A DNA stretch of 44,518 nt from Burkholderiales bacterium (GCA_035540415.1 DATLGR010000016.1:1-44518); one strand, 5' to 3'. Positions 7,743 through 23,097 are shown, numbered from the stretch's first letter. Translations and numbers: made by a program. Notes: generated by a model not told the origin, from the sequence alone.

Positions 7743-11423
<3,681 letters not shown>

Positions 11424-11437
11424 CGGGTCCAATGAGA

Positions 11438-11599: not shown

Positions 11600-11995
11600 A
11601 TGGACCATCTGCCCCCGAAAAAGGCGTTCGAGTTTCTCCACCAGCACGCCGACGCGCTGTTCATCGACTGCCGCAGCGAGATGGAGTATCTGTTCGTCGG
11701 CCATCCGGTCGGCGCCCTGCACGTGCCGTGGAATGACGGCCCGGAGTGGAGCGTCAATCCGCACTTCGTCGCCCAGGTCCGCAAGCTCGCCGGCGCACAG
11801 CACGCCCTGCGGCCGATCGTGCTCATCTGCCGCTCGGGCAACCGCTCGCGGGAGGCCGGCGAGGAGCTGGAGCGCGCCGGATTCGCCCGCGTGTACAACG
11901 TGGAGCACGGCTTTGAGGGGGAGCTCGACGAGCACCACCACCGCAATACCCGTGCGGGATGGCGCCACGACGGCCTTCCCTGGGAGCAGTGCTAG
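11600..11995 (+). CDS. Rhodanese-domain sulfurtransferase
   Basis: 131 aa with active-site loop CRSGNRS and the typical FIDCRSEMEY ... HVPW context. Confidence 0.85.
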   Translation: MDHLPPKKAFEFLHQHADALFIDCRSEMEYLFVGHPVGALHVPWNDGPEWSVNPHFVAQVRKLAGAQHALRPIVLICRSGNRSREAGEELERAGFARVYNVEHGFEGELDEHHHRNTRAGWRHDGLPWEQC

Positions 11996-11999
11996 AGCG

Positions 12000-12437
12000 A
12001 TGCACGACGAGCCGTTTCGCTCAAAGGTGAACGTCTTCCCCTGTCAGGTGCACTGGGGAGACTGTGATCCTGCGGGCATCATCTTCTACCCGACCTACTT
12101 CCGCTGGATCGACGCGGCCAGCTGGATGCTGTTCGATTCGGCCGGCTACGGGCCGGAATGGATGCGCGCCGAGCACATGGCGATGCCGCTGGTGTCGGCC
12201 GAGTGCCAGTTCATCGCGCCGGCGAAGCACGGCGACCGCTGCGAGGTGCGCTCGCGCATCGCGCGCTTCGGGGGCAAATCCTTCGTGGTGGAGCACGACA
12301 TCGTGCGAAGCGATGGCACCCTGCTCGCCAAGGGAAAGGAGACGCGCGTCTGGGGCCGCCACGTCGGCGGTCCGGGCACGCCGATGAAGGGCGAGCCCAT
12401 CCCCGAGGCGCTCAAGCAGAAGTTTCGCGCGCCCTAG
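12000..12437 (+). CDS. 4HBT/YbgC-family hotdog acyl-CoA (aryl-CoA) thioesterase
   Basis: 145 aa from ATG 12000. N-terminal VHWGDCDPAGIIFYPTYF matches the catalytic-Asp motif of 4-hydroxybenzoyl-CoA-thioesterase-type hotdog folds. The track ORF start at 11571 is an upstream extension overlapping the rhodanese gene. Confidence 0.8.
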   Translation: MHDEPFRSKVNVFPCQVHWGDCDPAGIIFYPTYFRWIDAASWMLFDSAGYGPEWMRAEHMAMPLVSAECQFIAPAKHGDRCEVRSRIARFGGKSFVVEHDIVRSDGTLLAKGKETRVWGRHVGGPGTPMKGEPIPEALKQKFRAP

Positions 12438-13665
12438 CCCAGTCCGCGAGCATGCGTTCGGTCAGGTCCCGGGCGGAGCCGTACGAGCCCGCGGGCTCGA
12501 ACAACGACTCGAGCTCCTGCGGCGTGACGCTGCCGGCCACCTCGGCATCCGCCCGCATCACGTCGCGCAACTCGGCGCCGTCCCTGGTGGCGCGGACGCA
12601 GAGCCGGTCGGCCGTAGCACGCGAAAGGCGCAGCGCGACAGCCTCCGAATAGACGAGCCCTCGGCTGCGGGCGAGATTCGCCCGCATCGCGGCCACGTCG
12701 AGCACCAGCCCCTCGAGGACCTCGGCCATGGCGGCGAGGGCGCTCCCAGCGGCTCCGGTGAGCTCGCGCAGCGTGAACCACTGGCTTTGCCATTGGCCCA
12801 GGCCGCGCTCGTGCTCCGGGCCGAGCGCCCCGAGCAGAGTGGCGGCGAGCCCTGGGGTCCGCCCCGCCGCTTCCAGGGCGAGCAGGCAACCGGCGGGATT
12901 TCGCTTGTGCGGCATGCTGGAGGACCCGCCGCGACCAGGCGTCGACGGCTCGGCGGCCTCGCCGACTTCCGGCTGCATCAGCAGCGCCACGTCCCGGGCG
13001 ACCTTCGCGGCGCAGCCGGCCAGCACGGCGAGCTCGCTTCCAAGACGGGCAAAGGCGTCCCGCGCCCCGTGCCATGGGACTGCGTACGTTAGCCCAAGGG
13101 CGGCGGCCACCGCCGCCGAAACCTCCTGCCCGCGCCCACGGAAGGCCGACAGCGTTCCGGCCGCACCGCCGAGCTGCAGGACGCAGGCTTCGCCGGCCGC
13201 GCGGCGAAAGTGGCCGAGGCTGCGGGTAAGGGGCAAGAGCCAAAGGGCCGCCTTCCAGCCAAACGGCACCGGCAAGGCCGGCTGCAGCAGCGTGCGGGCC
13301 ACCGTCGGCGTATCGAGGTGGCGCCTCGCGAGCTCGGCCGCGGCATCGCCGACCCGCACCGCCAAGGCGTCCACCCGCTTCGCCGCTTCCTTCAGGCATA
13401 GCGCGGTCGCGGTGTCGATGGCGTCCTGACTGGTAGCGCCGAAGTGTACGAACCGCGCGGCCTGCGGGCAGCGCTGCTCGACCGCGGCAGTGAGCGCTCG
13501 CACGAACGGGATGGCCAGCGTCCCGGCGGTGCGTGCCTCGCGCGCAAGCGCGGCCGCATCGAAGGCCGGCTGCGCGCACACGGCGGCGATCGCCTGTGCG
13601 TGCGTTGGCGCGAAGAAGCCGGCGCTGGCGCCGGCGTGCGCCAGCGCCGCCTCGAAGCGCGCCAT
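12412..13665 (-). CDS. pcaB: 3-carboxy-cis,cis-muconate cycloisomerase (fumarate-lyase superfamily); N-terminus uncertain
   Basis: GATSQDAIDT and the signature GGSSSMPHKRNP. The first canonical start (ATG 13665) appears to remove about 24 N-terminal residues that are encoded in frame upstream (see finding). Confidence 0.85.
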   Translation of the reverse strand: MARFEAALAHAGASAGFFAPTHAQAIAAVCAQPAFDAAALAREARTAGTLAIPFVRALTAAVEQRCPQAARFVHFGATSQDAIDTATALCLKEAAKRVDALAVRVGDAAAELARRHLDTPTVARTLLQPALPVPFGWKAALWLLPLTRSLGHFRRAAGEACVLQLGGAAGTLSAFRGRGQEVSAAVAAALGLTYAVPWHGARDAFARLGSELAVLAGCAAKVARDVALLMQPEVGEAAEPSTPGRGGSSSMPHKRNPAGCLLALEAAGRTPGLAATLLGALGPEHERGLGQWQSQWFTLRELTGAAGSALAAMAEVLEGLVLDVAAMRANLARSRGLVYSEAVALRLSRATADRLCVRATRDGAELRDVMRADAEVAGSVTPQELESLFEPAGSYGSARDLTERMLADWARARETSA

Positions 13666-13755: not shown

Positions 13756-14319
13756 TCAGAAATCAAAGAACACCGTCTCGTGCTTGCCTTGCAGCACCAC
13801 GTTCCACTCCAACCGAGCGTCGCCCTGCTTGCGCGCGACCAAGGTGCCGCGCCGCGCCGCCGGCACCAGGCCGAGGACCGGATCGTCGGCGTTGCGGGGG
13901 TCGTCGGGGAAATACAGCCGAGTCACCAACTGCTTGAGAAGCCCCCGCATGAAGATCGTGACCACCAGGTGCGGCGCCTGCTCCCGTCCGCCCGGCCCGG
14001 GTACCGGACCCGGCTTGATGGTGCGAAACCGGAACGCGCCGGCGTCATCGGTCAGCGAGCGTCCGTAGCCGCGAAATGCCCGGTCGAGGCTCGTCGCCCG
14101 CGGATCCTCGGGGCTCGCGTACCTGCCCTCGCTGTCGGCCTGCCAGATCTCCACCGCCGCGTCGTTGACCGGCCTGCCGTCGGCATCCACGATGGTCCCT
14201 TCGATCGCGACGCGCTCGCCCGCAACGCCCGGCGCGGCGAGATCCTCGATTTGCATCCACTCCAGGCCGATGCGCAGGTACGGGCCGATGGTCTGGGAGG
14301 TCGTGGCGCGCAGGCTCAT
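13756..14319 (-). CDS. pcaG: Protocatechuate 3,4-dioxygenase alpha subunit
   Basis: 187 aa from ATG 14319 (MSLRATTSQTIGPYLRIGL ... VEIWQADSEGRY ... FRFRTIKPG). ATGA overlap with the pcaH stop. The track ORF extension to 14592 overlaps pcaH. Confidence 0.9.
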   Translation of the reverse strand: MSLRATTSQTIGPYLRIGLEWMQIEDLAAPGVAGERVAIEGTIVDADGRPVNDAAVEIWQADSEGRYASPEDPRATSLDRAFRGYGRSLTDDAGAFRFRTIKPGPVPGPGGREQAPHLVVTIFMRGLLKQLVTRLYFPDDPRNADDPVLGLVPAARRGTLVARKQGDARLEWNVVLQGKHETVFFDF

Positions 14320-15026
14320 CGGCGGTTCTCCATGGGCGTGGCCTCGCGCCCGCGCAGGACGATGTCCCAGCGATAGCCCAGGGCGTACTCGGGCATCGTC
14401 GTCTCCCAGTCGAAAGTGGACACGAGGCGCGCCCGCGCCTTCTCGTCCGCTACGCAGGTGAACATCGGGTCGTAGTCGAGCAGCGGGTCGCCGGGAAAGT
14501 ACATCTGCGTGATCAGCCGTTGCATGAGTCCCCGGCCAAAGAGCGAGAAATGGATGTGCGCCGGGCGCCACGCGTTGTGGTGGTTGCGCCAAGGATATTC
14601 GCCCGGCCGGATCGTCAGGAACCGGTAGTGGCCTTGCGCGTCGGTGAGCACCCGGCCCGCGCCCGAGAAATTCGGGTCGATCGGCGCATCGTGCTGGTCG
14701 ACGCGATGGTGATAACGACCGGCCGCGTTGGCCTGCCAGATCTCGATCAGGATGTTCGGGACTGGCCGTCCGTCCTCGTCCAGCACGCGCCCGCTCACCA
14801 CAATGCGCTCCCCGAGCGGCTCGCCCGGGTGCTGCTTGGTGAGATCGCCGTCGGTGGGCTTGATGTCGTCGTGGCCGAACACCGGTGCGGTCACCTCCGA
14901 AAGCGTGTGGGGCAGCACCACGAGGGGCTGCGCAGGCGCCCGCTTCACGGTCGAGGCGTATTTCGGGAACAGGTACTCCGGTTGGGTATTCCAGTAGGGG
15001 CGCCGGTAAGGGGCGGGGTCTTTCAT
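14316..15026 (-). CDS. pcaH: Protocatechuate 3,4-dioxygenase beta subunit
   Basis: 236 aa with the intradiol dioxygenase core IEIWQANAAGRYHH ... YRFLTIRPGEYPW ... RPAHIHFS (Tyr/His iron-ligand context). Confidence 0.93.
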   Translation of the reverse strand: MKDPAPYRRPYWNTQPEYLFPKYASTVKRAPAQPLVVLPHTLSEVTAPVFGHDDIKPTDGDLTKQHPGEPLGERIVVSGRVLDEDGRPVPNILIEIWQANAAGRYHHRVDQHDAPIDPNFSGAGRVLTDAQGHYRFLTIRPGEYPWRNHHNAWRPAHIHFSLFGRGLMQRLITQMYFPGDPLLDYDPMFTCVADEKARARLVSTFDWETTMPEYALGYRWDIVLRGREATPMENRR

Positions 15027-15030
15027 GAAA

Positions 15031-15666
15031 TCACTCCGCGTCGGGCTGCTTGGAGGGCTGCGCGCGATCGAAGGCCTCGAGCTGCATGCAGGCGTCGAAC
15101 ACGCGCATCACGGTGGGATAAGGCGCGAGCTCGCACCCGTAGCGCTTGGCGTTGAACACCTGGGGGACGAGACAGCAGTCGGCCATGGTGGGGACGTCGC
15201 CGCAGGCGTAACGGCCGGAGCCGCCGCGCGCAAGCTCCGCCTCGAGCTTCGCCAGTCCGTCGGCGATCCAATGGCGGTACCACGCGTTGACCTGCTCCTC
15301 GGTCTGGTTGAGCTGGCGCTTGAGGTGCTGCAGCACGCGCAGGTTGTTGAGTGGGTGGATTTCGCAGGCCACGAGCAGCGAGAGGCTGCGCACGCGCGCG
15401 CGGCCGAGCGCATCGCGCGGCAGCAGCGCCGGCTGCGGATGCGCCTCCTCGAGATACTCGAGGATGGCGAGCGATTGGGTCAGCGCGGCGCCGTCGACGA
15501 GCAGCGTGGGCAGCAGACCCTGCGGATCAACCGCGGTGTACTCGGAGCGGCGATGCTCGCCCTTTGCGAGGTGCACGAACACCGGGTCGTACGCCAGGCC
15601 CTTCAGGCCCAGCGCGATGCGCACGCGGAACGCCGCCGAGCTGCGGAAGTAGGTGTAGAGCTTCAC
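15031..15666 (-). CDS. maiA: GST-zeta-class maleylacetoacetate/maleylpyruvate isomerase
   Basis: 211 aa from GTG 15666 (KLYTYFRSSAAFRVRIALGLKGL ... VDPQGLLPTL ... QSLAILEYLEE). GTGA overlap with the FAH stop. Confidence 0.85.
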   Translation of the reverse strand: MKLYTYFRSSAAFRVRIALGLKGLAYDPVFVHLAKGEHRRSEYTAVDPQGLLPTLLVDGAALTQSLAILEYLEEAHPQPALLPRDALGRARVRSLSLLVACEIHPLNNLRVLQHLKRQLNQTEEQVNAWYRHWIADGLAKLEAELARGGSGRYACGDVPTMADCCLVPQVFNAKRYGCELAPYPTVMRVFDACMQLEAFDRAQPSKQPDAE

Positions 15667-16380: not shown

Positions 16381-17868
16381 CTAGTCCTTGCGTGCGAGCT
16401 CCCGCTCCAGGATTTCGCGCAGCTTGAAGCGCTGCACCTTGCCGGTGGCGGTGCGCGGCAGCTCGTCGATCGCGCGCACCCACTTGGGCCGCTTGTGGCG
16501 CGGCAGCAGGCGCTGGCAGGCTTCCGCGGCGTCGTGCTCGGCCTGCAGCGGGTCGCTGCGCGGCGTGATGAAGAGGGCGAGGCGCTCCAGGCCGTCCCCG
16601 TCGGGCACCGGCACGCACGCGGCCTCGATGACGGCGGCCTGCTGCGCCGCGACTTCCTCGAGCTCCGCGGGCTGCACCCACTGCCCCGCCACCTTGATCA
16701 GCTCGTCCGCGCGTCCCTGGTGGACATAGTAGCCCTCGGCGTCGCGCAGGAAGAGATCCCGGCTGCAGAACCACCCGTCGCGAAACTGCTCGCGAGTGCG
16801 CTCGGGCAGGTTTGCGTACGCCGTCGCCTGCGCCGGATGGCGCAGCCACAGGACGCCCGGCTCGCCGGGCGCCGGCCGTGCGCCCTGCGCGTCGCGCAGC
16901 TCGACCTGCACGCCATCGAACGGCAGGCCGGTACGCGCGCCGTTGGCGGTCCCCGGCGGCGTCATCATGCAGGCGCAGAACGTCTCGGACATTCCGTAGA
17001 GGTTGAGCAGCTCGCCTCCCGTTGCCTCGCGCCACTGCTCCACGAGTTGGCGCGACGTGCGCTCCCCGCCCGCGACGAAGTGGCCTACCGCTGCAAGGAC
17101 GCCGAGCCGTGCGGGCGGCTGGGCGAGCAGCCGCCGGTAGACCGTCGGCACGCTGAACATCGCCTGCGGACGATGGCGCGACACGAGGTCCAGGACTGCG
17201 TCCGCATCGGGCCAGTCGGGGTGGACGATGGCGGTCGCGCCCAGGGCGAGCGTGGCGAGGAACCCATGTTCCAGCCCGTACGCGAAGAAGTACTTGGAGG
17301 TGCACAGCACCCGGTCGCCCTCCCCGAGGCCGAGGCGACGAAACGCGAGCCCGAGCGAGGCGAAGCCGCGATGCACATGCACGATGCCCTTGGGGCGTCC
17401 GGTGGTGCCGGACGAGTACAGCATGAAGGCCGGAGCCTCCGGCGCCATCGCGACGGGCGCCGCCGGCGGCGTGCTCTCGGCGCGGGTGCGAAGCGCCGAG
17501 CCGGCAAGCGTGGTCAGGGTGCCGCAGGGCCGCGTGGCGAATGCGTCGTCGACGATGACCAGGCGCGGCGCGCTGTCGGCGAGCACGTGCTCGAGCTCGG
17601 CCGCGGTCAGCCGGTTGTTGAGCGCGACCGCAACGGCCCCGGCGTGCACCGCGCCCAGCCAGGCCGCGGCGAATTCGGGCGTGTCGCGCATGAGCAGGAC
17701 GACGCGATCGCCGGGCCTCACGCCGAGCGCCTGCAGGGCCGCGGCGGCGCGCGCGGTGCGCTCGGCGAGCTCGGCGAAGCTCACCTGCTCCTGCCCGCAG
17801 ATCAGGGCGACGCGCTTGCCATGGCGTGCGACCGCATCGGGTCCGAGCAGCCGGTCCGCGGCGTTCAT
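16381..17868 (-). CDS. Benzoate/4-hydroxybenzoate-CoA-ligase-family aryl-CoA ligase (AMP-forming)
   Basis: 495 aa with AMP-binding motif YSSGTTGRPKGIVH, then YGMSET, GRADELIKVAGQWV and LPRTATGKVQRFKLRE. Confidence 0.88.
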   Translation of the reverse strand: MNAADRLLGPDAVARHGKRVALICGQEQVSFAELAERTARAAAALQALGVRPGDRVVLLMRDTPEFAAAWLGAVHAGAVAVALNNRLTAAELEHVLADSAPRLVIVDDAFATRPCGTLTTLAGSALRTRAESTPPAAPVAMAPEAPAFMLYSSGTTGRPKGIVHVHRGFASLGLAFRRLGLGEGDRVLCTSKYFFAYGLEHGFLATLALGATAIVHPDWPDADAVLDLVSRHRPQAMFSVPTVYRRLLAQPPARLGVLAAVGHFVAGGERTSRQLVEQWREATGGELLNLYGMSETFCACMMTPPGTANGARTGLPFDGVQVELRDAQGARPAPGEPGVLWLRHPAQATAYANLPERTREQFRDGWFCSRDLFLRDAEGYYVHQGRADELIKVAGQWVQPAELEEVAAQQAAVIEAACVPVPDGDGLERLALFITPRSDPLQAEHDAAEACQRLLPRHKRPKWVRAIDELPRTATGKVQRFKLREILERELARKD

Positions 17869-18339
17869 TCAGAAGATCGCGAAGCGTGCAGCGTACACCC
17901 CGAGCGGCCAGCGACCGCCGCAGTATAGGGCGTACTTGCGCAGGAAAGGATGGCTCGGCGCCATCCCGGCGGCTTGGGCGAGGCGCGCCTGGTAGGCGGC
18001 GTAGCTTGCCGCGCCCGCCGCCGCGCGCACAAGCGCCGCATCTGCGCAGCCGGCGCGGGCCGCCGCCACGGCGGCCGCGCCGTGCAGCGCCTCATTCAGC
18101 CGCAACCACTCGCGATCCGCCGGATCGAGCCGGACGCGCTGCTCGAGCCGTTCGCGCTCCGCCTCCTCCGCGTGCCACCACGCCTGCGCAGGCTGCCGGC
18201 ATGCGGCGCCCGCCTCGTCCCACGAGGCGATCGGCTGCACTGCCGCCGGCAGCGCCAGCGCGCCGAGATAGCCCGCAATCTCGGCGAGCTCCGCCTCGCC
18301 GAGCGGCTCGCCCAGCGCACTGAACCAGGCTTCGGTCAC
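17869..18339 (-). CDS. Hypothetical 156-aa Ala-rich protein, no recognisable motif
   Basis: Exactly fills the gap between two solid genes. Its GTG start overlaps the upstream stop (GTGA) and its TGA abuts the ligase ATG. Strong third-position G/C bias is visible in this frame. Confidence 0.6.
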   Translation of the reverse strand: MTEAWFSALGEPLGEAELAEIAGYLGALALPAAVQPIASWDEAGAACRQPAQAWWHAEEAERERLEQRVRLDPADREWLRLNEALHGAAAVAAARAGCADAALVRAAAGAASYAAYQARLAQAAGMAPSHPFLRKYALYCGGRWPLGVYAARFAIF

Positions 18340-19040
18340 GCCGCGAGCCGCACGTCGGGCAGGCGGATGCCGAGCGGCTCGACGGTGGACCTGGCGCGCG
18401 CCATGTAGTCCGCGCGCATGTCCTCGTTGCTGCGCAGCTTGAGGCCGTAGCGGCGGAAGATCTCGTTGTTGCGCGAGCCGGCTGCGCCGAAGAACTTCGG
18501 CGCCTCGGGATAGAAGTCGTCCACCGCCCGCTGCACCCGCTCGCGGCCCTCGGCCGTCTCCACCAGGTCGACGCAGAAGTCGAGGCCGAACTGGGCGTGA
18601 AACTTCTCCTCGGGCATGGTGGTGCGCGCGATGTTGCGAAGCGGCACGAACGAGCAGTGCAGCAGGTCCTCCACCTGGAGGATTTCGGCAAGATCACCCA
18701 GCATCTTGATCACGCAGAACTGCTCCCAGCTGCGCAAGGGCACCTCGAAAATGTTGAGCGGCCGCTTGTGATGCGGATCCATCTCCTCGGGCTGCACGCC
18801 GATCTGGTCGGCCAGCTCCTTGAAGCGCACGTGATGGTGGTATTCCTCCATCGCCACCCGGCACGCGAGCCATTTCGCGTACGGCGTGGGGGCGAGCCGG
18901 ATCGCCGGCTCGTCGAAAACCTGCGCGCCGTAGAGCTCGTTGAGCGCGTGGCTGCGCACGATCTTGCGCGCCGCAACTTGGTACTCCTCAGGCTGGCGGC
19001 GGAATTCTTCGATGGTCTTGACGGGCGGATACGCGGACAT
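18336..19040 (-). CDS. Short PaaA/BoxB-like ferritin-fold di-iron protein (putative aryl-CoA oxygenase subunit)
   Basis: 234 aa. Acidic residue plus ExxH pattern occurs twice: E35 ... E65-E-Y-H68 and D116 ... E145-K-F-H148. GAGGAG Shine-Dalgarno upstream of ATG 19040. Confidence 0.7.
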   Translation of the reverse strand: MSAYPPVKTIEEFRRQPEEYQVAARKIVRSHALNELYGAQVFDEPAIRLAPTPYAKWLACRVAMEEYHHHVRFKELADQIGVQPEEMDPHHKRPLNIFEVPLRSWEQFCVIKMLGDLAEILQVEDLLHCSFVPLRNIARTTMPEEKFHAQFGLDFCVDLVETAEGRERVQRAVDDFYPEAPKFFGAAGSRNNEIFRRYGLKLRSNEDMRADYMARARSTVEPLGIRLPDVRLAA

Positions 19041-19052
19041 GGCTCCTCGAAG

Positions 19053-19967
19053 TCAGACTAGGGGATCGCCGGAGAACGCTTCCAGGTCGGTCACGAGCTC
19101 CGCGAAGTGCGGCTCGAGCACGCTCATCGCGGCGGCCAGGGCCGCCAGGTCGTAGGCGCCGCGCGGGTGCAGCACGCGGGCGCTCGGCCGGGGCTGGGAG
19201 AAGACGAACAGCTCGCGCCCCCGAGCGCCGAAGAGCTGGCCCGAGATCTTGGCCGCCGCATCGCTCGCCAGATAGCTCACCAGCCGGGCGACGTAGAGGG
19301 CAGGGACTTGCAGGGCCTTGTCCTTGTAGGCGGCCTGCGCTGCGTTCGCCGGCTTGATGCTCTCGGTGACGCGTGTGGCGGCGAATGGCGCGACGGCGTT
19401 GCAGCGGATGCCCGAGCGCGCCAGGTCGTGCGCCACGACGCGCGTCAGGCCGAGCAGCCCCGCCTTGGCCGCGCCGTAGGCGCCTTGGCCGAAATTGCCG
19501 TAGATGCCGGCGGTCGACACCAGGTTCACGATGGCGCCGGGGGCGCGCCCCGCCTTCGCCTGCTCGCGCATGGGCGGGGTCGCGGCGGCGAGCAGCCGCT
19601 GCGCGCCGGTGAGATTGGTGCGGATGACTGCGTCCCAGGCGGCGTCGTCGGACTTGAAGATGAAGGCATCGCGGAGGATGGCGGCGTTGTTCACCACGAT
19701 GTCGAGCGTGCCGAAGCGCTCCAGTGCCATCTGCACCGCCGCGCGCGCGACGGCGGACTCGGCGATGTCGCCCGCCAACGGCGCAGTGCCCGGCAGCCCG
19801 GCGGCGGTGCGCTCGGCGATGTCCGGTTCGTCGGGAACACCGCCGATGGACACGCCGGCATCCACGATCACGACCCGCGCGCCGTGCGTAACGAGGTCCT
19901 CCACGATGGCGCGCCCGATGCCACGGGCGCCGCCGGTCACGATTGCCACTCGCCCTTCGAGGTTCAT
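19053..19967 (-). CDS. Long (304-aa) classical SDR oxidoreductase, hydroxyacyl-CoA-dehydrogenase-like, with C-terminal extension
   Basis: TGGARGIG, NNAA and catalytic YGAAK motifs. About 50 extra C-terminal residues relative to 250-aa SDRs. First gene of the operon. Confidence 0.85.
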   Translation of the reverse strand: MNLEGRVAIVTGGARGIGRAIVEDLVTHGARVVIVDAGVSIGGVPDEPDIAERTAAGLPGTAPLAGDIAESAVARAAVQMALERFGTLDIVVNNAAILRDAFIFKSDDAAWDAVIRTNLTGAQRLLAAATPPMREQAKAGRAPGAIVNLVSTAGIYGNFGQGAYGAAKAGLLGLTRVVAHDLARSGIRCNAVAPFAATRVTESIKPANAAQAAYKDKALQVPALYVARLVSYLASDAAAKISGQLFGARGRELFVFSQPRPSARVLHPRGAYDLAALAAAMSVLEPHFAELVTDLEAFSGDPLV

Positions 19968-19990
19968 GCCGGATGGCCTTCGCAGGTGGT

Positions 19991-20020
19991 TTGCACGGCC
20001 GCCGGAGGCCGGGCTAGGAT
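19991..20020 (+). promoter_or_regulatory. Candidate marR promoter (TTGCAC-N18-TAGGAT)
   Basis: Hexamers at 19991-19996 and 20015-20020 in the 80-nt divergent intergenic region. Recognised by eye only. Confidence 0.3.
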
Positions 20021-20047
20021 GCTAGCAATTGTTTGCCCCCCAAACAA
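20019..20047 (-). promoter_or_regulatory. Candidate promoter of the nine-gene catabolic operon (TTGTTT-N17-TAGCAT on the minus strand)
   Basis: Reverse complement of 20042-20047 is TTGTTT and of 20019-20024 is TAGCAT, with a 17-nt spacer. It overlaps the inverted repeat below. Confidence 0.3.
20029..20047. promoter_or_regulatory. Inverted repeat TTGTTTG-N5-CAAACAA, candidate MarR operator
   Basis: Perfect 7-bp arms at 20029-20035 and 20041-20047, immediately before the marR ATG and across the putative -35 and spacer of the divergent operon promoter. Confidence 0.45.
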
Positions 20048-20479
20048 ATGAAGCTGAACGGTAGCGCCCTGCACCCCGGGGTGCTTCCCGGTCTGCTGGG
20101 GTACCGGCTGCGGCTCGCGCAGCAGGCGGTGTTTCGCGACTTCGCCGAGCGTGTGGGCGAGCTCTCTCCGGGGCGCGTGGGCCTGCTGTTGCTGGTCGAG
20201 GCGAATCCGGGAGTCACCCAAAGCCGCCTCGCTCAGGCCTTGGGCGTGGACCGCTCGACGCTGGTGGGGCTCATCGATGTCCTGCAGAAGCGACGGCTGC
20301 TCGAGCGGCGCCGCGGCGAGGACCGGCGCACCAACGGGCTGTGGCTGACCGCCGTGGGCGCGCGCGCGGTGGCCACGCTCAAGCGCCGCATCCAGCGCCA
20401 TGAGCGACGGGTCGCGGCGCGCTTGAGCGAGGGGGAGCGCGCGCAGCTCGTCGGGCTGCTGGAGAAGCTCACGGGGTAG
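20048..20479 (+). CDS. MarR-family transcriptional regulator
   Basis: 143 aa from ATG 20048 (the track TTG at 20033 is an alternative). Winged-HTH region LLLLVEANPGVTQSRLAQALGVDRSTLVGLIDVLQKRRLLERRRGEDRR. Divergent from the catabolic operon. Confidence 0.88.
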   Translation: MKLNGSALHPGVLPGLLGYRLRLAQQAVFRDFAERVGELSPGRVGLLLLVEANPGVTQSRLAQALGVDRSTLVGLIDVLQKRRLLERRRGEDRRTNGLWLTAVGARAVATLKRRIQRHERRVAARLSEGERAQLVGLLEKLTG

Positions 20480-20482
20480 GAG

Positions 20483-20512
20483 AAAAAAGAAGGGCGCCCG
20501 CAGGCGCCCTTC
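20483..20512 (-). terminator. Rho-independent terminator of amtB
   Basis: 10-bp GC-rich stem 20489-20498 / 20503-20512 with a 4-nt loop, followed on the minus strand by UUUUUU (plus-strand A-run 20483-20488). It lies 19 nt after the amtB stop. Confidence 0.8.
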
Positions 20513-20530
20513 TCCAATGGGCGGAGTGGA

Positions 20531-21991
20531 CTAGAGGCGGTACGCGGCCTCTCCGTGCGCCGTGGTATCCAGGCCTTCGCGCTCGTCCTCTTCGGTCACC
20601 CGCAGGCCGATCACGAGATCCACCAGCTTGAACGCGATGAACGCCACGATGCCGGACCACAGGACCGTCGTCAGCACCCCGGTCGCCTGCGTAAGAAGCT
20701 GTCCCGCGATCGAGTAGTCGGGGGACACCTGGTTGGCAACGTAGTCGAAGATCCCCGAGCCGCCCAGCGCCGGCGCTGCGAACACGCCCGTGAGGAGCGC
20801 GCCGAGGATCCCGCATACGCCGTGCACGCCGAAGACGTCCAGCGAGTCGTCGGCGCCGAGCATGCGCTTCAGCCCGTTCACGCCCCAGAACCCGCCCGCG
20901 CCGCCGACCATGCCGATGACCAGCGCGCCGCCGACGCCGACGAACCCGCAGGCTGGCGTGATCGCCACCAGCCCCGCGACAGCGCCCGACGCCGCGCCTA
21001 GGGCCGAGGCCTTGCCGCGCGCGAGCGACTCGACCAGCAGCCATGCCAGCACCGCCGCGGCGGTGGCGGCGATGGTGTTGAGAAAGGCGATCGTTGCAGT
21101 GCCGGTCGCTTCCAGGTTGGAGCCGGCGTTGAAGCCGAACCAGCCCACCCACAGCAGGCAGGCGCCGATCATGGTGAGCGGCAGGCTGTGCGGCGGCATG
21201 GACTCCTTGCCGTAGCCTATGCGCTTGCCGACGACGTAGGCGCCGACCAGGCCCGCCACTCCGGCGTTGATGTGCACGACCGTGCCGCCGGCGAAGTCGA
21301 GCGCCCCCTTCTGCCACAGCCAGCCCGCGGCCGCGGTCACCGCCTCCAGGCTTTTCGCGTCGGTGATGGCGTCGGGCCCGTCCCAGTACCAGACCATGTG
21401 GGCGATGGGAGCGTAGGCAAAGGTGAACCAGATCACCGCGAACACGAGGGCCGCGGAAAACCGGATGCGCTCGGCGAAGGAGCCCACAATGAGCGCGCAG
21501 GTGATGGCGGCGAAGGTGAGCTGGAAGGCGATGAAGGCCATCTCCGGGATGGCCACGCCCTTGGAGAAGGTGGCGCCCAGCGACTCGCCGTCGACGCCCC
21601 TGAGGAAGAGCTTGTCCAGGCCGCCGAAGAACGCGTTGCCGCCGGTGAACGTGATGGAGTAGCCGTAGACCACCCACACCACCGCGATGAGGCAGAAGGT
21701 GACGAACACCTGCATCAGCACCGAGAGCGTGTTTTTCGCCCGCACCATGCCGCCGTAGAACAGCGCGAGCCCGGGGATGGTCATCAGGATGACGAGCGCG
21801 GTGGCAACCATCATCCAGGTGGTGTCGCCCTTGTCGACCTTGGGCTTTGCCGCCTCCGTGGGCGTGACCGGCTTCGCCGTCTCCAGCGCGGCGGGTCTTT
21901 CCGGCGCGGGCCCGGCCTTGTCCTGCGCCAGCGCAGCCCCGGCGAGCGCCAGACCGAGGCCCATGGCGATCCATGCGAACCAGTTTCTCAT
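20531..21991 (-). CDS. amtB: Ammonium transporter AmtB
   Basis: ATG 21991 is preceded by TAAGGAG (glnK stop plus SD). Signal peptide MRNWFAWIAMGLGLALAGAALA, then the typical Amt core (FAGGTVVHINAG, GWFGFNAGS, DVFGVHGVCG). The track start at 22054 would overlap glnK. Confidence 0.93.
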   Translation of the reverse strand: MRNWFAWIAMGLGLALAGAALAQDKAGPAPERPAALETAKPVTPTEAAKPKVDKGDTTWMMVATALVILMTIPGLALFYGGMVRAKNTLSVLMQVFVTFCLIAVVWVVYGYSITFTGGNAFFGGLDKLFLRGVDGESLGATFSKGVAIPEMAFIAFQLTFAAITCALIVGSFAERIRFSAALVFAVIWFTFAYAPIAHMVWYWDGPDAITDAKSLEAVTAAAGWLWQKGALDFAGGTVVHINAGVAGLVGAYVVGKRIGYGKESMPPHSLPLTMIGACLLWVGWFGFNAGSNLEATGTATIAFLNTIAATAAAVLAWLLVESLARGKASALGAASGAVAGLVAITPACGFVGVGGALVIGMVGGAGGFWGVNGLKRMLGADDSLDVFGVHGVCGILGALLTGVFAAPALGGSGIFDYVANQVSPDYSIAGQLLTQATGVLTTVLWSGIVAFIAFKLVDLVIGLRVTEEDEREGLDTTAHGEAAYRL

Positions 21992-22001
21992 TGCAGTCTC
22001 C

Positions 22002-23097
<1,096 letters not shown>

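Follow-up and report, generated by a model that had tools for sequence, protein, structure and literature searches.

The 44,518-nt contig of a Burkholderiales bacterium that we analysed in full (GCA_035540415.1, DATLGR010000016.1:1-44518; hereafter, the window) raises the question of whether four consecutive minus-strand genes, encoding a long short-chain dehydrogenase/reductase (SDR), a 234-aa di-iron protein, a 156-aa protein (P156) and an aryl-CoA ligase, belong to an aryl-CoA oxygenation module of a new kind and, if so, what this module produces. An initial annotation of the window had proposed such a module, with protocatechuoyl-CoA as the product. Its central claim stands: an undescribed aryl-CoA oxygenation module is present, and this module is widespread and undescribed in the literature that we found. 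The reading that we favour, with a probability of roughly 55%, is that the module is a CoA-dependent di-iron route leading from benzoate or 3-hydroxybenzoate through gentisyl-CoA to gentisate, and that the window holds a derived copy in which the reductase gene has been deleted.

The family membership of the 234-aa protein was examined first by profile searches. The protein matches PF05138 (PaaA_PaaC) with 87.6 bits over residues 10-229 (cut-off 28.5), its NCBIfam matches are the PaaA and PaaC models only, and PaaA is its best match by sequence among solved structures (E = 4e-13). On the PaaA equivalog TIGR02156, it scores 75.1 bits, which is under the cut-off of 280. Foldseek comparison of the predicted structure also placed PaaA first (E = 5e-7, TM 0.68), followed by PaaC and Sulfolobus SSO1313, with BoxB as a weak match (E = 0.01); at a pLDDT of 68, the model should be good for fold assignment but not for pocket analysis. 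In the HMMER and MAFFT alignments, residues E42, E72, H75, D126, E155 and H158 of E. coli PaaA correspond to E35, E66, H69, D116, E145 and H148, so the six-ligand site of the initial annotation is present, but its first ExxH motif is E66..H69 and not E65..H68. The stretch MEEYHHH fits both registers, and the ligand residues, both registers included, are invariant in 36 family members. As had been noticed, the protein is shorter than the characterised enzymes (234 versus 309 aa in PaaA); the C-terminal ~65 residues of PaaA are missing from it in the alignment. By these comparisons, it belongs to the PaaA family as a catalytic-type protein with a full set of ligands and is not a PaaA orthologue.

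Homologues of the di-iron protein are numerous, with 2042 found in a metagenome protein search and 211 in genome stretches, and public annotation names them 'PaaA' or 'phenylacetic acid catabolic protein'. In a plasmid collection, every match was below 30% identity, and all were ordinary paaA. The claimed absence of paaB, paaC, paaD and paaE from the window agrees with tblastn searches, in which E. coli PaaB, PaaC, PaaD and PaaE gave no match to the window at E <= 0.01. Each related locus with displayed gene calls contains a single PF05138 gene, and none of these loci contains box genes.

What accompanies this gene elsewhere? A genome scan with one genome per species found the 211 relatives, and the best 80 loci (written L001, L002 and so on) were examined; neighbour counts allow for contig ends, hence the differing denominators. 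The 80 loci originate from metagenome-assembled genomes of Burkholderiales and other Betaproteobacteria, from Polyangiaceae, Alphaproteobacteria, Sulfurifustis and Acidiferrobacteraceae, and the alphaproteobacterial carriers include the isolates Iodidimonas muriae (L042) and I. nitroreducens. The di-iron gene is immediately preceded by an SDR gene in all 74 of 74 loci, and the SDR gene in turn by a gene for a Fer2-FAD-NAD reductase in 65 of 71; the top scores of these reductases are to BenC and MmoC. A bicupin gene directly follows the di-iron gene in 46/69 loci and is present anywhere in the locus in 54/80. On the gentisate 1,2-dioxygenase (GDO) model TIGR02272, these bicupins reach 508 bits (L042) and 546 bits (L060) against a cut-off of 442, and the bicupins next to the module thereby score as true GDOs. 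An FAH-family gene is found downstream of the module in 56 of the 80 loci; MaiA is present in 45 loci and MarR in 52, ADP-forming and AMP-forming CoA ligases occur in at least 25 and at least 19 loci, a thioesterase of the 4-hydroxybenzoyl-CoA thioesterase (4HBT) type in 18, and PcaH in 6. A CoA ligase of one type or the other is present in at least 36 of the 57 loci that have at least 6 kb of downstream sequence.

The conserved core is therefore a BenC/MmoC-type reductase, a long SDR and a short di-iron protein, in this fixed order, and its usual companions are GDO, P156, a fumarylpyruvate-type FAH protein, an ADP- or AMP-forming CoA ligase, MaiA and a 4HBT-type thioesterase. The four genes of the window did not recur as a conserved unit. 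P156 is missing from the 11 AMP-ligase loci closest to the window (L001-L007, L009, L010, L012 and L013), is present in the other near relatives L008, L011, L014 and L015, and the AMP-forming ligase is missing from most loci other than the close relatives of the window. The composition of four genes, with no reductase and with P156 as a partner, is a peculiarity of the lineage to which the window belongs. Among more remote relatives, L081 has a 48% identical di-iron gene with a long SDR gene upstream, L082 a 46% identical one with a P156 homologue downstream, and L084 a 36% identical one together with MarR, a TRAP transporter, SDR fragments, a GDO-like fragment and an ADP-forming ligase.

Another important point is whether the missing reductase reflects a real loss or an error of assembly. 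The place of the reductase gene in the window is taken by a short remnant (GTG CAA ACC ACC TGC GAA GGC CAT CCG GCA TGA), whose equivalent in L001 reads MQITLEGHDRP... and opens a 335-aa Fer2-FAD-NAD reductase; just the first ~8 codons of the gene are kept in the window. In the blastn alignment, window positions 19968|19967 join L001 positions 6157|7086, which means that 928 bp are missing. L001, L004 and L022 share the flanks of the window (amtB, glnK and porin on one side, metH on the other) and have a reductase of 330-351 aa between MarR and SDR. Misassembly was rejected as the cause because an independent Joint Genome Institute (JGI) metagenome contig, L091, has the same junction and is 99.7% identical across it. 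The reductase gene has thus been lost by deletion. Searches by tblastn at E 10 for a hidden GDO, reductase or ADP-forming ligase in the window returned nothing credible, and six of the related loci (L026, L040, L044, L046, L047 and L062) also have no reductase. With no reductase gene and no GDO on the contig, the oxygenase of the window must either depend on a reductase and a ring-cleavage enzyme from other parts of the genome or be in the process of decay. The absence of a dedicated reductase, as reported in the initial annotation, holds for the window but does not characterise the system. A caution for annotation follows: partners missing from one window need to be checked in orthologous loci before their absence is called a property of the system.

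The enzymes around the di-iron protein are informative about the substrate. The SDR is a classical one, with the motifs TGGARGIG (residues 11-18), Asp36 (NAD-type) and Y164xxxK168. Among solved structures, it is closest to the (3R)-hydroxyacyl-CoA dehydrogenase domain of MFE-2 (2et6, 216 bits), 17beta-HSD4 and mycobacterial SDRs of ~320 aa; its match to PRK07792 covers residues 2-290, and an exact-sequence look-up gave no match. It thus resembles (3R)-hydroxyacyl-CoA dehydrogenases, and since the closest relatives are MFE-2-type and other long SDRs, the C-terminal extension pointed out earlier is a family trait of CoA-ester dehydrogenases. The ligase has its top NCBIfam score on HbdA, the 3-hydroxybenzoate-CoA ligase (402 bits, cut-off 1000), and scores 349.3 bits on benz_CoA_lig TIGR02262 (cut-off 375.25), on which its L005 orthologue reaches 379.6. 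Its top PDB relative is the benzoate-CoA ligase 2v7b (278 bits), and it carries the motifs SSGTTGRPKG and PRTATGK, which supports its earlier placement in the benzoate-CoA-ligase family. The thioesterase has the 4-hydroxybenzoyl-CoA thioesterases 5wh9 (E = 1e-21) and 1bvq as its top PDB relatives and shares the catalytic motif GDCDPAG with 1bvq (the N-terminal Asp motif of Pseudomonas 4HBT), in agreement with its annotation as an aryl-CoA thioesterase. The gentisyl-CoA thioesterase BH1999 belongs to the same subfamily (PMC516016), and the enzyme of the window is predicted to be of the 4-hydroxybenzoyl-/gentisyl-CoA type. In L001-L013, its gene stands in convergent orientation where the operon ends, and in L017, L018 and L020 it lies within the operon.

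A CoA-thioester substrate is supported by the CoA ligases and 4HBT-type thioesterases of the loci, by the SDR, whose closest solved relatives act on 3-hydroxyacyl-CoA, and by the remote relative L083, in which a single 205-aa ORF stands between the di-iron gene and a downstream aryl-AMP/CoA ligase gene. That this substrate is of the benzoyl-CoA type is suggested by the family of the window ligase, by LIV-type ABC transporter genes in the module operon of 8 loci and by a regulator of the BzdR/BoxR family (HTH-XRE plus shikimate-kinase domain; NF006015 321 bits, cut-off 204) directly upstream of the module in 7 Polyangiaceae loci. Characterised regulators of this family sense benzoyl-CoA. The gentisate route is supported in the window itself by an FAH gene and by a MaiA that scores over its equivalog cut-off.

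From the observed gene content and homologies, we infer the chemistry of all the steps as follows. The ligase would make the CoA thioester of a benzoate-type acid, with benzoate the likeliest and 3-hydroxybenzoate second. With electrons from the reductase, the di-iron protein would then oxygenate the ring, most likely by epoxidation, by analogy with PaaA and BoxB; benzoyl-CoA and an epoxide are favoured because the characterised relatives epoxidise non-activated rings. Water would open the epoxide to a hydroxy-diene (2,5-dihydrodiol) thioester, and the NAD-type SDR would oxidise its C2 hydroxyl, which is beta to the thioester, so that the ring is re-aromatised to gentisyl-CoA. Gentisate would be freed by the thioesterase and taken to fumarate and pyruvate by GDO, MaiA and FAH. 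One NADH would be spent and one regained, as with BenABC and BenD. The oxygenate-then-dehydrogenate logic of the initial annotation is reasonable, given the SDR gene that adjoins the oxygenase gene in every locus where this could be seen. A more specific proposal is that a new three-step 'dihydroxylating' system, built of reductase, SDR and short di-iron protein and assisted by P156 as an accessory of new fold, converts benzoyl-CoA directly to gentisyl-CoA via epoxidation, conjugate hydration to the 2,5-dihydrodiol and beta-hydroxyacyl-type dehydrogenation; we offer it as a tentative one that is more doubtful than the route as a whole.

Several points weigh against the gentisyl-CoA route. The mechanism is deduced from genes, and no enzyme is assigned to its epoxide-hydration step. 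About one third of the loci are without a ligase in the available sequence, the AMP-forming ligase scores best against HbdA, and the structural model of the di-iron protein is of modest confidence (pLDDT 68). Within the subclade of the window (L001-L013), no GDO was found within 8 kb, and six members and the window carry pcaHG instead; this subclade may make another product. Finally, plain hydroxylation of 3-hydroxybenzoyl-CoA or salicylyl-CoA would also yield gentisyl-CoA, but it leaves the invariant SDR unexplained.

Plain hydroxylation, in the first place of 3-hydroxybenzoyl-CoA, is the main rival, even if we consider it unlikely. According to this explanation, the di-iron protein would hydroxylate 3-hydroxybenzoyl-CoA at position 6 or salicylyl-CoA at position 5, as a di-iron counterpart to the flavoprotein SdgC, and the SDR would serve another step or substrate. 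The HbdA score of the ligase fits it, as do the known CoA-dependent hydroxylation routes to gentisate represented by sdgC (PMC13215587) and the BH1999 cluster (PMC516016). However, the SDR that adjoins the di-iron gene throughout the examined loci and in remote relatives is hard to explain in this way. The characterised PaaABCE and BoxAB systems epoxidise non-activated rings, and the BzdR/BoxR-type regulators of the 7 Polyangiaceae loci also argue against this explanation.

The model of the initial annotation, in which the di-iron protein together with P156 oxygenates the aryl-CoA, the SDR converts a dihydrodiol to protocatechuoyl-CoA, the thioesterase sets protocatechuate free, and PcaHG and PcaB from the same operon use it up, is in our view improbable, and gentisyl-CoA is the more likely product. 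It draws on the pcaH, pcaG and pcaB genes, which run in the same direction as the module both in the window and in L002, L003, L004, L010, L012 and L013, on pcaG-like and pcaB-like genes that lie nearby on the other strand in L005-L007, on the lack of a GDO within 8 kb in these pca-bearing near relatives and on the 4-hydroxybenzoyl-CoA thioesterase type of the thioesterase. Against it stands L001, the closest relative of the window (90% identity of the di-iron protein, same flanks), in which MaiA is directly followed by the convergent thioesterase gene: pcaHGB is missing, yet FAH, MaiA and the thioesterase are retained. FAH and MaiA would have no role after PcaHG, a true GDO is coupled to the module in 54 of the 80 loci (next to the di-iron gene in 46 of 69), and an SDR of the beta-hydroxyacyl-CoA type would be better suited to oxidation at ring C2 than to a 3,4-diol. 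In the window, the AMP-forming ligase occupies the usual place of GDO, and pcaHGB is appended.

It is similarly improbable that the module of the window is a non-functional relic left after the loss of the reductase and of the ring-cleavage dioxygenase. The deletion, with its remnant, and the absence of both GDO and reductase from the 44.5-kb contig are what such decay would look like. However, the nine downstream open reading frames (ORFs) are all intact and tightly coupled, the remnant retains its ATGA overlap with the SDR start, and the identical junction without reductase exists in the independent metagenome contig. The order SDR, di-iron gene, P156, ligase, FAH, MaiA, PcaH recurs in assemblies from several other samples, which indicates that the lineage persists. 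Six further loci are without a reductase gene, and in systems of this kind generic ferredoxin reductases often serve as substitutes. A non-aromatic, alicyclic or aliphatic CoA ester, on which the di-iron protein would act as an acyl-CoA desaturase or hydroxylase and the SDR as an ordinary beta-hydroxyacyl-CoA dehydrogenase, is very improbable: the closest relatives of the SDR do use aliphatic and steroid 3-hydroxyacyl-CoA, and thiolase and long AMP-binding genes are found near the module in the 7 Polyangiaceae loci, but GDO, FAH and MaiA are joined to the module in most loci, the ligase and the thioesterase are of the aryl type, and the BzdR/BoxR-type regulators point to an aromatic substrate.

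The place of P156 in the gentisyl-CoA route is that of a predicted optional accessory. The earlier statement that it has no recognisable motif agrees with the lack of any Pfam or NCBIfam match; its 440 homologues are all unnamed. A hidden Markov model (HMM) found it in 52 of the 80 loci, in each case as the next gene behind either the di-iron gene or GDO. The AlphaFold2 model, which is confident (pLDDT 92, pTM 0.87), is mostly helical with two short strand segments and has no Foldseek match in the PDB better than E 0.5, and the P156 HMM gave no match to E. coli PaaA, PaaB, PaaC or PaaD. A PaaB/C/D-like or effector subunit was rejected on these grounds, and the structural or effector role that the initial annotation gave to P156 has become a guess, with no similarity to PaaB, PaaC, PaaD or any solved fold to lean on. 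An Fe-S protein is unlikely, as the cysteines are not conserved in distant homologues. All seven loci without a reductase (the six and the window) carry P156, compared with 52/80 overall, a trend that would arise by chance in ~5% of cases and is suggestive without being significant; P156 may compensate for, or interact with, the electron supply.

Some further observations concern the related loci. The ADP-forming 'ligase' is ~465-480 aa long in many of them (L042 11134-12531; L060 14305-15747) and ~690 aa in Polyangiaceae; the Pfam domains of the short form are CoA-binding, Succ_CoA_lig and Ligase_CoA_2, with no ATP-grasp among the matches. Between FAH and the ADP-forming ligase, 16-19 betaproteobacterial loci (L050-L080 type; e.g. 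L060 11082-14244) contain genes for a BKACE-family protein, a PdxA-like dehydrogenase and a four-carbon-acid-kinase-like (SBD_N/NBD_C) protein. In L083 (2833-7872, GCA_040639575.1), a divergent nonribosomal peptide synthetase (NRPS) module is followed, in this order, by a 46%-identical di-iron gene, an unassigned 205-aa ORF and the genes for an aryl-AMP ligase and a GATase fused to a chorismate-binding enzyme. The arrangement looks biosynthetic and suggests that, in the synthesis of natural products, the di-iron family modifies units of the aminobenzoyl or hydroxybenzoyl type as well.

The features of the locus in the window are collected in Table 1. The four minus-strand ORFs, their junctions and the nine-gene operon are all as first described: the SDR and di-iron genes are separated by a 12-nt spacer with GAGGAG, the di-iron gene and P156 overlap in GTGA, and P156 and the ligase gene abut as TGA|ATG. 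The ligase gene is followed in the same direction by FAH, MaiA, PcaH, PcaG and PcaB, with gaps of 25, -4, 4, -4 and 90 nt. A homologue of the divergent MarR gene has the same position in 52/80 related loci, and the L060 homologue matches Pfam MarR. The intergenic region on the MarR side is 66 nt long and contains an inverted repeat, the sequence of which is conserved in L001; this repeat is a candidate MarR operator.

Table 1 Features of the module locus in the window, with assignments predicted from family matches
Feature	Coordinates	Strand	Basis or remark
MarR-family regulator, divergent	20033..20479	+	best NCBIfam match Saro_0803 family, 92.7 bits, below cut-off
Inverted repeat TTTGTTTGG-N4-CAAACAA, divergent promoter region	20026..20050		inverted repeats I3 and I4
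Reductase-gene remnant	19964..19996	-	33 nt, VQTTCEGHPA*, stop overlaps SDR start as ATGA
SDR, 304 aa, like (3R)-hydroxyacyl-CoA dehydrogenase of MFE-2	19053..19967	-	PF00106 141 bits
PaaA-like di-iron oxygenase, 234 aa (HVL34122.1)	18336..19040	-	PF05138 87.6 bits
P156, conserved protein, GTGA-coupled to di-iron gene	17869..18339	-	no family match
AMP-forming aryl-CoA ligase, benzoate-CoA-ligase family	16381..17868	-	PF00501 276 bits
FAH-family hydrolase, fumarylpyruvate-hydrolase type, 230 aa	15663..16355	-	PF01557 191 bits
Zeta-class glutathione S-transferase, maleylpyruvate/maleylacetoacetate isomerase MaiA	15031..15666	-	TIGR01262 279 bits, cut-off 171
PcaH, protocatechuate 3,4-dioxygenase beta subunit, variable add-on	14316..15026	-	TIGR02422 364 bits, cut-off 296
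PcaG, protocatechuate 3,4-dioxygenase alpha subunit, variable add-on	13756..14319	-	TIGR02423 211 bits, cut-off 126
PcaB, 3-carboxy-cis,cis-muconate cycloisomerase-like, variable add-on	12412..13665	-	PRK09053 421 bits and TIGR02426 325 bits, both below cut-offs
Hotdog aryl-CoA thioesterase, 4HBT class I type, convergent	12000..12437	+	PF13279 and PF03061

The ends of the operon show some additional features. For PcaB, which the 90-nt gap separates from pcaG, the alignment to the family models does not begin before model position 24-31; the protein may have a shortened N-terminus or be a divergent cycloisomerase. A gap of 4 nt separates the start of the thioesterase gene from a preceding 131-aa rhodanese-like ORF (11600-11995, plus strand; active-site loop CRSGNRS recognised by eye), and the thioesterase gene is probably co-transcribed with this ORF and not free-standing. 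On the other side, a terminator-like hairpin with a 13-bp stem (20486-20515, minus strand) follows a large amtB-like ORF and, strong as it is, appears to insulate the operon from this neighbour. The amtB-like ORF, assigned from its sequence and conserved synteny with no family scan, and an adjoining 112-aa glnK-like ORF occupy 20531-22340 (minus strand); together with a porin-like ORF, the pair, which resembles nitrogen-uptake genes, makes up the conserved left flank, common to L001, L004 and L022. The right flank, also present in L001, is a 1229-aa metH-like ORF (7743-11432, minus strand; assigned by eye with no family scan) that is unrelated to the finding.

The gene set was not found in the literature that we searched (PMC9765128, PMC6449761, PMC13215587, PMC4005966 and PMC516016 included), and no characterised pathway with the composition given in the initial annotation was found there either. 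If the three-step conversion of benzoyl-CoA proposed above is correct, Paa and Box would be joined by another aerobic 'hybrid' aryl-CoA pathway, one that would supply a direct link from benzoyl-CoA to gentisate. Such a link was proposed in the 1990s and set aside later. Two functions are established for PaaA/BoxB-type di-iron enzymes, and in each of them the ring is opened with no help from a ring-cleaving dioxygenase. The module would add a third use of the PaaA/BoxB fold, namely oxygenation of an aryl-CoA after which aromaticity is restored to feed a classical dioxygenase pathway. The module has over 2000 metagenome homologues and is found in Burkholderiales of soil, in Polyangiaceae, in Alphaproteobacteria and in sulfur oxidisers; its consistent annotation as 'PaaA' mis-predicts phenylacetate degradation. 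Two Iodidimonas isolates carry the complete version, which makes the pathway directly testable in culture.

How does the module compare with known systems? With the phenylacetyl-CoA 1,2-epoxidase PaaABCE of E. coli (PDB 3pvr, 4iit), it shares the ferritin-like di-iron fold with all six PaaA ligands aligned, an aryl-CoA substrate expected to come from a dedicated ligase, and, in the related loci, an NADH-FAD-[2Fe-2S] reductase as the electron source. It differs in the shorter di-iron protein and in having no PaaB, PaaC or PaaD; the [2Fe-2S] domain is C-terminal in PaaE but N-terminal in the reductase of the module, as in BenC and MmoC, and the SDR and a gentisate lower pathway take the place of PaaG, PaaZ and PaaJ. 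The benzoyl-CoA 2,3-epoxidase BoxAB is likewise a di-iron epoxidase that acts on a benzoate-derived CoA ester, and it has counterparts to the ligase family of the window and to the BzdR/BoxR regulators of the 7 loci. However, BoxB is about twice as long as the di-iron protein of the window, resembles it weakly in fold and is not among its NCBIfam matches, genes of the BoxA or BoxC type are absent from the module, and the ring would be kept and re-aromatised in the module instead of being cleaved hydrolytically. As an aryl-CoA oxygenase, the module would function in the manner of PaaABCE or BoxAB. By its family scores, fold match and gene content, it belongs to neither.

The CoA-dependent routes to gentisate of the SdgC, PhgB and B. 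halodurans BH1999 type follow the same logic: a ligase, ring oxygenation on the thioester, a 4HBT-type thioesterase and then GDO, isomerase and hydrolase. The SdgC- and PhgB-type hydroxylases are flavoproteins that are not known to need an SDR, whereas the module would rely on a two-component di-iron oxygenase for which an SDR neighbour is obligatory. The Phg system, with the p-hydroxybenzoyl-CoA hydroxylase PhgB, was reportedly described by Zhao et al. (Mol Microbiol) in 2018. Finally, the module resembles BenABC-BenD, the benzoate dioxygenase with its cis-diol dehydrogenase, in its BenC-like reductase and in its probable economy of redox equivalents, with NADH spent on oxygenation and regained by the re-aromatising SDR. 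In contrast to that system, its oxygenase is of the di-iron and not the Rieske type, its substrate would be a CoA ester, its SDR is of the hydroxyacyl-CoA dehydrogenase type, and its product would be gentisate instead of catechol.

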